NCBI GenBank assembly: GCA_902789915.1
Contig: CADAPW010000001.1
Coordinates: 1 to 54,239, forward strand
Origin: an uncultured Bacteroidia bacterium
Lineage (GTDB): Bacteria; Bacteroidota; Bacteroidia; Bacteroidales; F082
Reading direction: 5' to 3'
Length of the DNA: 54,239 nucleotides
Below the pieces are notes generated by a model, which had not been told where the DNA came from, ran no database searches, and saw only the letters and a list, made by a program, of their open reading frames with translations. The position numbers and the translations under genes are program-made. Shown in pieces: positions 23,626 to 24,300 of the stretch; within the stretch, counting starts at the first letter, position 1, and every line of letters starts with the position of its first letter.

Positions 23626-24300
23626 ATGAATGATCTGATTAACAATTTCAACAGAAAAGAACTTTCTGGTCGCGACGCGCGTCTTTGGCAGGAATGGAAA
23701 GAACTTGACACCCTCTGCGACAAACGCAAAGCTGTCAGCTCCAACCCTCGCGAGCCTTCCATTTCCTATATCATCCGTAAAAAGAATGTCATGGGGCTTC
23801 CCGTCGAATATGAGATTTGGTATCGGGTAAAGTCTATCGTAAATGTAGAAGACACTCCGATTCCACGTAAACCCATCTTCGGATATTTGCACAAGATGAG
23901 CATCGTGTTGCCTAACAACTATCCCTCGGCCGACGGCAACCCCATTTTTACCTTCCGCACCGACATCTGGCATCCCAACATCCGCTCGTCAGGGAGCTTC
24001 AAAGGCCATGTCTGCCTTACCATCAAGGAAATGGGCGTTCTGGCTTCGCTAAAAGACCTTGTGCTCCGCGTGGAACGTTACTTGAAATACCAACTCTATC
24101 ACGCTCAAAACACTTATCCCTATCCTGAAGACCAAAATGTGGCCGAATGGGTACGCGAAGAAGGCGAGCCTAACGGATGGACAAGATTCGGTCAAAATGA
24201 CGCATCTACTCCTGATGATGACGACAAGCCTATCCCCACCGCACCAACCCCACAAGATGCACCCCCACAAAACACCACCAAAAAGTCACTGACAATATGA
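23626..24300 (+). CDS. Ubiquitin-conjugating enzyme (E2/UBC-fold) homologue with a canonical HPN motif and active-site Cys
   Basis: LPNNYPSADGNPIFTFRTDIWHPNIRSSGSFKGHVCLTIKEMG reproduces the eukaryotic UBC signature YPxxPPxxxFxTxIxHPNIxxxGxICLxIL. H116-P117-N118 lie at nt 23971-23979 and Cys130 at 24013-24015. The C-terminal tail is Pro/Asp-rich (TPDDDDKPIPTAPTPQDAPPQNTT). Confidence 0.8.
   Translation: MNDLINNFNRKELSGRDARLWQEWKELDTLCDKRKAVSSNPREPSISYIIRKKNVMGLPVEYEIWYRVKSIVNVEDTPIPRKPIFGYLHKMSIVLPNNYPSADGNPIFTFRTDIWHPNIRSSGSFKGHVCLTIKEMGVLASLKDLVLRVERYLKYQLYHAQNTYPYPEDQNVAEWVREEGEPNGWTRFGQNDASTPDDDDKPIPTAPTPQDAPPQNTTKKSLTI
23971..24015 (+). other. E2 active-site segment (HPN ... Cys130)
   Basis: The codons cat ccc aac at 23971-23979 and tgc at 24013-24015 were read directly from the sequence. 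Confidence 0.8.

Follow-up and report, generated by a model that had tools for sequence, protein, structure and literature searches.

We have analysed a window of 54,239 nt (the whole stretch of DNA, positions 1 to 54,239 of contig CADAPW010000001.1) from an uncultured Bacteroidia bacterium of the Bacteroidales lineage F082. The window contains a type VI secretion system (T6SS) locus and, within it, an open reading frame (ORF) at 23626-24300 which, judged by its sequence and its predicted structure, is a genuine ubiquitin-conjugating (E2) enzyme with a eukaryote-type active site, catalysis being predicted. With a probability of about 0.65, the E2 and its neighbours form one membrane-associated module for conjugation of a ubiquitin-like protein (Ubl), of which the likeliest targets are the membrane complex or the baseplate of the T6SS, because the module is fixed in an operon of the T6SS-iii type and because its putative ligase (E3) and its putative peptidase are both envelope-spanning. 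The E2 fold and the conservation of its active site, the motifs of the partner proteins, the exposed C-terminal glycine of the Ubl and the strict synteny with T6SS genes were all computed here. The original prediction, made from the letters of the window, was concerned with the E2. Its interpretation of this protein is supported, save for the spacing of the cysteine, while the complete Ubl-E1-E2-RING-JAB set in a T6SS operon, which is more notable than the E2 alone, had been missed.

As a single sequence the E2 is a marginal member of its family. The match to Pfam UQ_con (PF00179) narrowly exceeds the gathering threshold (27.4 bits with a cut-off of 27.0, E=2.9e-6) and covers aa 87-133 only, and the best match in a phmmer search of the PDB has E=5.5e-4, all matches listed being E2s. 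The analysis was therefore widened to the family profile, conservation and structure. An exhaustive search of 1.84 billion representative proteins yielded 233 clusters (50% identity) at E<=1e-3, typically spanning aa ~45-190 and exhibiting diverse bacterial architectures. The original prediction had stated that the active-site segment could be aligned to eukaryotic UBC domains, and had named as a risk that the similarity might be confined to a short motif. A family profile built from 83 diverse relatives matched eukaryotic E2s with E=1e-13 over ~92 positions (UBE2K best), and the similarity went beyond the motif, running from the beta-sheet via HPN and Cys to a 'PYPEDxxVA' segment, the counterpart of the canonical 'P.P.DP..vA' gate loop and helix 3. 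UQ_con was matched individually by 78 of the 83 relatives (best E=3.2e-11). No match to Prok-E2_A to Prok-E2_E was obtained, either for the E2 (a Pfam scan at E<=0.1 gave UQ_con alone) or for the 83 relatives.

Relatives of the E2 at E<=1e-11 carry fused YukD, EAD11 or TIR domains (Pfam). Among the fusions seen in the relatives P0196, P0253, P0216 and P0142 are YukD+EAD11, YukD+TIR, a second E2 plus JAB, and DUF4419, and by their sequences such architectures indicate repeated recruitment of E2s of this family into conflict systems. A recent transfer of the gene from a eukaryote to a bacterium was considered and rejected, given the identity of only ~20% to eukaryotic E2s and the 233 diverse bacterial clusters.

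The residues on which the original prediction was built, W115-H116-P117-N118-I119 and C130-L-T-I, are found in the protein (residue numbering by script), as is the upstream motif Y99-P-S-A-D-G-N-P-I-F-T-F-R-T. H116-P-N118 and C130 align with the HPN and the catalytic Cys of UBE2K and of a Plasmodium E2. Of the 137 representative clusters that cover the active site, 133 (97%) have HPN, 135 the Trp before it, 126 (92%) the aligned Cys and 119 (87%) the gate-loop Asp169, and in the 83 orthologs Cys130 is conserved to 100%. The protein has one other cysteine, Cys31 (23716-23718) in the long N-terminal helix, which is also kept in 100% of the 83 orthologs.

An AlphaFold2 model built from the alignment of the 83 relatives exhibits a UBC fold with a folded core to about residue 190 (predicted local distance difference test score, pLDDT, 88.7; predicted template modelling score, pTM, 0.81). 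When the model was compared with the PDB using Foldseek the top 50 matches were all eukaryotic E2s, each with a probability of 1.00, with target-normalised template modelling scores of 0.48-0.69 over 154-197 aligned columns. The root mean square deviation is high (5.5-8.8 A), because the model has additional beta-strands (aa ~70-86) and its last helix is short.

The claim of a matching cysteine spacing holds only roughly. Eleven residues separate N118 from C130, compared with 7 in UbcH5B and 8 in UBE2K, and the HMMER alignment to canonical E2s needs a 3-residue gap between HPN and Cys. HPN-x11-C is the most frequent spacing in the bacterial E2 family (74/150 representatives). A conserved Trp after the Cys is regarded as a canonical E2 feature (bioRxiv 10.1101/2022.03.31.486616) and is absent as well ('CLTIKEMGVLAS' compared with 'CLDILRSQW' in UbcH5B), so that the protein lacks both the canonical HPN-Cys spacing of 7-8 and the Trp, while the Pro-rich beta3-beta4 motif from the same list of canonical features (bioRxiv 10.1101/2022.03.31.486616) is present. 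An acidic and Pro-rich C-terminal tail had also been described. The stretch in question, TPDDDDKPIPTAPTPQDAPPQNTTKK, is indeed there, but neither its sequence nor its length is conserved, and some relatives have no tail. In the AlphaFold2 model pLDDT is low from about residue 190 (10-residue block means of 51-71), and we treat the tail as a probably disordered appendage. The reported overlap between the stop codon of the E2 and the start of the next gene was confirmed as ATGA at 24297-24300, and the next product begins with a hydrophobic, signal-like segment.

The small gene preceding the E2 encodes a 108-aa protein that is unrecognised by any family library scanned. Profile comparisons suggest that it is likely a YukD-like Ubl with a beta-grasp fold. 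With its family profile, matches were obtained to the YukD domain (Pfam-verified) of P0253, an E2 fusion (E=5.4e-5, 68 columns, ending at [IV]AG), and to a 93-aa protein that partners a distant E2 (E=6e-6), and an hhalign comparison with ubiquitin gave E=1.3e-4 for residues 51-71 of the latter. When the PDB was searched with the profile 32 of 34 matches were ubiquitin, with E=0.13 for mono-ubiquitin; a value of E=1e-15 for polyubiquitin was discounted, being the sum of nine identical weak repeats. The C-terminus is Gly followed by a stop codon in 81 of 82 orthologous loci. The pair of small ORF and E2 is conserved on contigs of 1-4 kb that hold E2 relatives at 45-56% identity, and small ORFs upstream of distant E2 relatives share the ending 'DYN[VI]..GD.L.L...IAG'. 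Ubl partners of distant E2s that extend past IAG were observed at L092:1270-1584 (…PIAG-YTTVSRNC) and at L085:5536-5817 (…LIAG-V). These extensions would imply processing by a peptidase there, as for precursor Ubls, with the T6SS-linked Ubl being made already mature.

The adenylating enzyme (E1) of the module belongs to the ThiF family, and its best matches in the PDB are the active adenylation domains of the eukaryotic enzymes UBA7, SAE2 and UBA1 (E=1e-21 to 6e-18), with MoeB and ThiF ranking behind (1e-17). C168-x2-C171, C187 and C261 are invariant, and there is a conserved C-terminal region of ~135 aa of unknown fold.

Two of the partners are predicted membrane proteins, their topology being taken from a hydropathy scan. 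The N-terminus of the RING protein is signal-like, about 340 aa lie outside the membrane, and there are one transmembrane (TM) segment, the RING-H2 and about 5-6 more TM segments. All eight ligands of the RING-H2 and W440 are invariant in 40-80 orthologs. The matches to five RING families in Pfam, including Prok-RING_1, are weak (E=0.005-0.015), one ortholog (P0446) has a precomputed match to PF14446, and the sole PDB matches of the RING profile are the RING-H2 E3s Pirh2 and synoviolin (E=0.044-0.59). Some orthologs are named 'FHA domain-containing protein' by NCBI. A profile search of the protein against the PDB detected no FHA or vWA domain, and the guess of a vWA-like extracytoplasmic part was abandoned as unsupported by this search. 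The JAB protein (TM-JAB) also starts with a signal-like segment and has a TM segment at aa 145-163, with about 120 aa lying outside the membrane, and from its motif it is a candidate de-conjugating or processing peptidase. The JAMM motif and E282 are conserved in 78 sequences, the match to Pfam Prok-JAB is weak (E=0.03-0.06), and a gene adjoining a distant E2 relative carries Pfam JAB.

Three further proteins accompany these. The first, p351, is translationally coupled to the E2 and has the same position in 82 of 84 loci, yet is only ~29% identical to the protein of the window; it had no family match in library scans. The second, p394, has one TM segment (aa 303-321), a region resembling a coiled coil and a C-terminal tail that is basic, and gave no significant match in a Pfam scan. 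The last, p292, is present in 73 of 84 loci, with the absences at contig ends, and was without family matches in library scans. The genes of the Ubl, E1, E2, RING and JAB proteins are all five neighbouring and syntenic in ~80 species.

Conservation was assessed in a scan of one genome per species, which gave 120 relatives, of which 80 were kept, and in four metagenome contigs (together L001-L084). The 80 genomes come from Prevotella/Prevotellaceae, Muribaculaceae, Alistipes, Barnesiella, Porphyromonadaceae, Bacteroidaceae, Tidjanibacter and one Lentimicrobiaceae, and nearly all are metagenome-assembled genomes from gut or rumen. The 80 genomes and the four contigs share essentially one order, VgrG-PAAR-[variable genes]-Ubl-E2-p351-p394-JAB-RING-E1-p292-TssK, and genes missing from the syntenic loci coincide with contig ends. 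Median identities to the proteins of the window are 78% for E2, 75% for Ubl, 74% for E1 and ~80% for TssB/TssC, followed by VgrG (57%), RING (56%), JAB (52%), TssK (43%), p394 (33%) and p351 (29%). The Ubl, E2 and E1 are thus conserved about as strongly as the sheath proteins TssB/TssC. At loci anchored on RING orthologs the downstream order, via the glucosaminidase-LysM gene to the Ser/Thr kinase, was kept in two further species, and all three loci examined for the kinase had it. With the gene at 36261-37103 as anchor, a metagenome scan returned two near-identical contigs only.

The surrounding locus is a Bacteroidota T6SS locus with all genes on the + strand. Its assignment to the T6SS-iii type follows from TssC (PF17541, 438.8 bits), two copies of TssD (PF17642), the VgrG domains (Phage_GPD, Phage_base_V), DUF4280, ClpV and TssK. 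After the toxin gene come a Tle1-like lipase with DUF2931, two surface/outer-membrane proteins, the E2 block and TssK. Position and size suggest that the three unannotated genes after TssK are TssE, TssF and TssG. The glucosaminidase-LysM protein further downstream is plausibly a peptidoglycan-remodelling enzyme for the apparatus, and the Ser/Thr kinase is a candidate regulator acting via the FHA-like domain of the RING protein. Between this kinase and the PP2C phosphatase lie three more surface/outer-membrane proteins. The intergenic gaps from Ubl through PP2C are -68 to +43 nt, which indicates a single operon. None of TssN, TssO, TssP, TssQ and TssR was recognised by Pfam (8460-44864) or, for the module and some genes of the baseplate region, by NCBIfam, libraries that may hold no such models.

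In the mechanism that we infer, including every chemical step, the identity of the E1 cysteine, the target and the link to T6SS function, the Ubl would be synthesised with its reactive C-terminal Gly108 already exposed. The ThiF-type E1 would adenylate the Ubl and probably take it onto Cys187, from which it would be transferred to Cys130 of the E2. The E2~Ubl thioester would dock on the cytoplasmic RING-H2 of the polytopic membrane protein, and the Ubl would be discharged onto a lysine, with Asn118 stabilising the oxyanion and the gate-loop Asp169 aiding the attacking lysine. The membrane-anchored JAB peptidase would take the Ubl off again. Conjugation might in this way control assembly, firing or recycling of the T6SS apparatus, with input from the Ser/Thr kinase and the PP2C of the operon via the FHA-like domain fused to the RING protein. 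A bolder proposal, which we put forward tentatively and consider rather doubtful, is that T6SS assembly or firing has covalent attachment of the Ubl as an integral step throughout a large clade of gut and rumen Bacteroidales. The free YukD-like Ubl would then be joined by the RING ligase to a protein of the membrane complex or baseplate, the conjugated Ubl would recreate, reversibly and under the control of Ser/Thr kinase and FHA, the ubiquitin-like docking surface that Bacteroides fragilis TssN carries fused, and the TM-JAB would reset the machine.

Several points weigh against a T6SS-directed conjugation module. The function and the target assigned to it are wholly computational. The similarity between the Ubl and ubiquitin is limited to ~21 residues, and the AlphaFold model of the Ubl (36 close homologs, pLDDT 39.6) is unusable. 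The RING, JAB and FHA calls lie below the curated Pfam thresholds and are founded on motif conservation together with weak, specific matches. Considering the 11-residue HPN-Cys loop and the absent Trp, the catalytic details of the E2 may differ from those of canonical enzymes. Synteny is evidence of co-inheritance, not of shared function. Finally, distant relatives of the E2 are fused to TIR or EAD11, which are typical of conflict and defence, and the ancestral role may be non-secretory.

In one alternative, an anti-phage or conflict Ubl system would simply have its genes in the T6SS locus, and its action would be independent of secretion. The E2 relatives fused to YukD+TIR or YukD+EAD11 resemble conflict systems described by Kaur et al. 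2020 (PMC7159879), uncharacterised operons with Ubl, E1, E2, RING and deubiquitinase have been predicted to be antiviral (Chambers et al., bioRxiv 10.1101/2023.09.26.559546), and the short contig of one distant relative shows a ThiF-Ubl-E2-JAB operon but no T6SS genes. However, in all ~80 species the module is located inside a structural operon, between VgrG/PAAR and TssK and translationally coupled, whereas an island merely lodging there should differ between genomes in where it lies and whether it is present. A Pfam scan of the module gave no TIR, caspase or other effector domain. The Ubl, E2, JAB and RING proteins match no model in PADLOC (v2.0.0, 2023, which may lack Bil/Bub), where the E1-E2 models were matched solely by the generic adenylation domain of the E1. 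Moreover, the E3 and the peptidase have signal-like N-termini and large extracytoplasmic parts, which are unexpected in a cytoplasmic anti-phage system, and we consider a defence role improbable.

Alternatively the Ubl could tag effectors, or the adaptors Hcp, VgrG and PAAR, for loading, or the Ubl or the E2 could itself be delivered into target cells. Such handling of cargo would be in line with the position of the module, directly behind the variable block of effector and immunity genes (Tle1/DUF2931 here; Ntox46/Tsi6 in L091), but the effectors differ between loci while the Ubl, E2 and E1 are 74-78% conserved and constantly present. In addition, neither the Ubl nor the E2 has a PAAR, MIX or Rhs-type delivery domain or an adjoining immunity gene, and both E3 and peptidase are membrane-anchored in the producer. 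We therefore give cargo handling a small chance, and note that tagging of conserved structural cargo (Hcp, VgrG) would overlap with the explanation preferred here. Finally, the marginal single-sequence matches (27.4 compared with 27.0 bits in Pfam) and the JGI label of the E1, 'adenylyltransferase/sulfurtransferase', would be compatible with an E2-like protein that is a non-catalytic scaffold resembling ubiquitin E2 variants (UEVs), or with an E1 and Ubl that are a sulfur-carrier pair of the ThiS/MoaD type working without conjugation. Cys130, HPN and the gate-loop Asp are kept family-wide, whereas UEVs are without the Cys. The E1 has no rhodanese domain, scores far below the cut-off of the ThiF and MoeB models in NCBIfam and is closer to eukaryotic E1s than to MoeB or ThiF, and the RING protein and the JAB peptidase are constant companions. 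Both of these non-conjugating roles are accordingly very unlikely. The coordinates of the features are given in Table 1.

Table 1. Positions in the window of the conjugation module, its sites and the associated T6SS genes.
Feature	Position	Strand	Description
Core T6SS-iii genes	8460..17039	+	ClpV, TssB-like, TssC, two Hcp, VgrG, DUF4280/PAAR-like toxin
Ubl	23279..23605	+	108-aa candidate ubiquitin-like modifier, ends ...P-I-A-G108-stop
E2	23626..24300	+	ATG start, 224 aa, predicted UBC-fold enzyme
E2 HPN	23971-23979
E2 predicted catalytic Cys130	24013-24015
E2 gate-loop P-Y-P-E-D	24118-24132
E2 tail, predicted disordered	from about 24193
p351	24297..25352	+	351 aa, hydrophobic signal-like segment aa 6-24, 4-nt overlap with E2
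p394	25349..26533	+	394 aa, signal/lipobox-like N-terminus (L-I-S-C)
TM-JAB	26539..28218	+	559-aa membrane protein with cytoplasmic JAB/MPN domain
TM-JAB JAMM motif	27526-27567		H330-S-H-x7-S-x2-D343
TM-RING, putative E3	28197..30575	+	792-aa polytopic membrane protein, cytoplasmic RING-H2, FHA-like C-terminus
RING-H2	29436-29558		C414-x2-C-x13-C-x-H-x2-H-x2-C-W-x6-C-x6-C454
FHA-like domain, C-terminus of RING protein	~30324-30572		Yop-YscD_cpl E=0.002, FHA E=0.028, full model length
E1	30587..31786	+	399-aa ThiF-family adenylating enzyme; Pfam ThiF E=2.8e-50
E1 C187	31145-31147		candidate thioester Cys
p292	31794..32672	+	292 aa, cytoplasmic, consistently placed between E1 and TssK
TssK-like baseplate protein	32678..33913	+	TIGR03353 E=1e-9, Pfam T6SS_VasE E=5.8e-4; directly downstream of module
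Glucosaminidase, two LysM domains	37123-38100		between baseplate-region genes and Ser/Thr kinase; conserved in L090, L091
Ser/Thr protein kinase	38106..39608	+	Pkinase E=1.5e-43; same relative position in L090, L091
PP2C phosphatase	44007..44864	+	PP2C E=3.4e-18; last operon gene

Other features of the locus were noted in passing. It is headed by an UpxY-family transcription antiterminator (7898-8521; NF033644, 144.6 bits), a type of regulator usually linked to Bacteroides capsule loci, and just upstream of this gene lies an IS4-type DDE transposase (6540-7685; DUF4372 + DDE_Tnp_1). The flanks (1472-4442 and 47156-52134) carry TrkA/TrkH upstream and rhamnulokinase, rhamnose isomerase and rhamnulose-1-phosphate aldolase downstream. 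No genes of conjugative elements were present among the flanking ORFs scanned, several ORFs being outside the scan. The GA1 and GA2 T6SS loci of Bacteroides are borne on integrative and conjugative elements, unlike the present locus with its housekeeping flanks.

The interval from VgrG to Ubl (15732-20073) is a variable effector/immunity cassette, which contains a DUF4280(PAAR-like)+Gln_amidase toxin, a Tle1-like phospholipase and DUF2931. The same cassette holds DUF4280+Ntox46 with Tsi6 in L091:1-762, and genes of differing size in L001-L004. Two surface proteins with Flg_new_2 repeats are encoded within the operon (20119-21951 and 41852-43999), the former with a type IX secretion C-terminal sorting domain (Por_Secre_tail). 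In another species a similar gene is found at the corresponding place (L090:927-3629). Directly upstream of the Ubl, a coiled-coil protein (21881-23236) exhibits weak, sub-threshold matches to outer-membrane beta-barrels and may be an outer-membrane part of this T6SS variant; a coiled-coil-type gene of similar size (411 aa) occupies its position at L090:3675-4910. Downstream of the module, the ORF 33846-34421 (GTG start, 191 aa) overlaps TssK by 68 nt. Its orthologs have 167 aa and start 2-5 nt after TssK, and the real start is probably an internal ATG (MKSDLTQ...).

The E2 by itself is one more bacterial protein that keeps the eukaryote-type HPN/Cys site, in a family already described computationally, and it is relevant to the extent to which the ubiquitin machinery is older than eukaryotes. 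The wider interest lies in the setting of the complete set, of which there are relatives in roughly 120 Bacteroidales species from gut and rumen. The experimentally studied bacterial Ubl cascades known to us, Bil and Cap2 of the cyclic oligonucleotide-based anti-phage signalling system (CBASS), are anti-phage, whereas the present set is found in a secretion operon. This raises a testable question, i.e. whether protein tagging serves to build, fire or recycle a bacterial nanomachine, and the module may help to explain how the baseplate is anchored in T6SS-iii variants without recognisable TssN-R. If the proposed role is true, the module would be the first ubiquitin-type E1-E2-RING cascade in bacteria to serve a structural, housekeeping purpose instead of phage defence, and it would constitute a new mode of secretion-system regulation.

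A bacterial E2 bearing HPN is not new in kind, because of the UQ_con match, the JGI annotation of E2 orthologs as 'ubiquitin-protein ligase' and the published Ubl/E1/E2/RING/JAB systems. The abstract of the 2011 Mol Biosyst paper by Burroughs, Iyer and Aravind is said to note eukaryote-like oxyanion-hole residues in prokaryotic E2s, and reportedly it also proposes conjugation of YukD-like Ubls. Full-text searches and the T6SS-iii and Aravind-group literature covered, which did not include the 2011 paper, gave no description of a link between the module and T6SS, and an earlier mention is possible. The premise of the original prediction, that many prokaryotic E2-like proteins lack HPN, agrees with Cap2, which is without HPN (bioRxiv 10.1101/2022.03.31.486616), and with BilB, which has CEHH (bioRxiv 10.1101/2023.09.26.559546).

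With the canonical eukaryotic enzymes UBE2K, UBE2D/UbcH5 and UBE2N/Ubc13 the E2 shares the predicted UBC fold, W-HPN and a Cys in the loop after beta-4, 'YP..P.F.F.T' before HPN and 'P.P.D..VA' in the gate loop and helix 3, as well as a RING-H2 partner and an E1 with a eukaryote-like adenylation domain. It differs in its identity of about 20%, in the 11-residue spacing, the extra strands and the short last helix. The modifier of canonical systems ends in RGG, whereas the YukD-like Ubl ends in IAG, and here, unlike in canonical systems, the E3 and the peptidase are predicted integral membrane proteins and the module lies in a bacterial secretion operon.

The prokaryotic Ubl/E1/E2/RING/JAB operons that the Aravind group described from computation have, by sequence, the same E2 family and the same five-part set of partners. 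In conflict systems, Ubl-E2 fusions occur with RING, E1 and JAB (Kaur et al. 2020, PMC7159879), and bacterial operons containing RING have been called rare and uncharacterised (Chambers et al., bioRxiv 10.1101/2023.09.26.559546). In contrast to these operons, the Ubl and the E2 are separate here, no TIR or caspase effector domain is present, and the genes are embedded in a T6SS-iii operon. The Bil system (BilABCD) and CBASS Cap2 likewise combine a bacterial E1, E2 and JAB with a Ubl that has a C-terminal Gly, and some of these Ubls require trimming by JAB (bioRxiv 10.1101/2023.09.26.559546). BilB has the CEHH motif and the E2 of Cap2 is ATG3/ATG10-like and without HPN, whereas the present E2 has HPN. 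Bil and Cap2 are also cytoplasmic, anti-phage and without a RING E3, in contrast to this module with its putative membrane RING E3.

The H1-T6SS of Pseudomonas aeruginosa is controlled by a threonine-phosphorylation pathway comprising the kinase PpkA, the phosphatase PppA and Fha1. The locus studied here similarly contains a Ser/Thr kinase, a PP2C and an FHA-type domain, and by analogy we infer that the module may be subject to phosphoregulation. Fha1 is a soluble scaffold, whereas the FHA-like domain is here the C-terminus of a polytopic RING protein.

A parallel to a Ubl within the apparatus itself is provided by B. fragilis, where the T6SS-iii core protein TssN has a cytoplasmic ubiquitin-like domain of the EccD/YukD type that is proposed to dock TssK (Bongiovanni et al. 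2024, PMC10781749). Like the TssNQOPR proteins of B. fragilis, the present genes belong to a T6SS-iii locus in which several envelope proteins are encoded beside the baseplate genes, in this case a YukD-like Ubl gene and four envelope proteins just upstream of TssK. No conjugation enzymes are mentioned for the B. fragilis T6SS-iii (PMC10781749). Whereas the domain of TssN is fused, the putative Ubl of the present locus is free, terminates in Gly and is accompanied by E1, E2, RING and JAB proteins.

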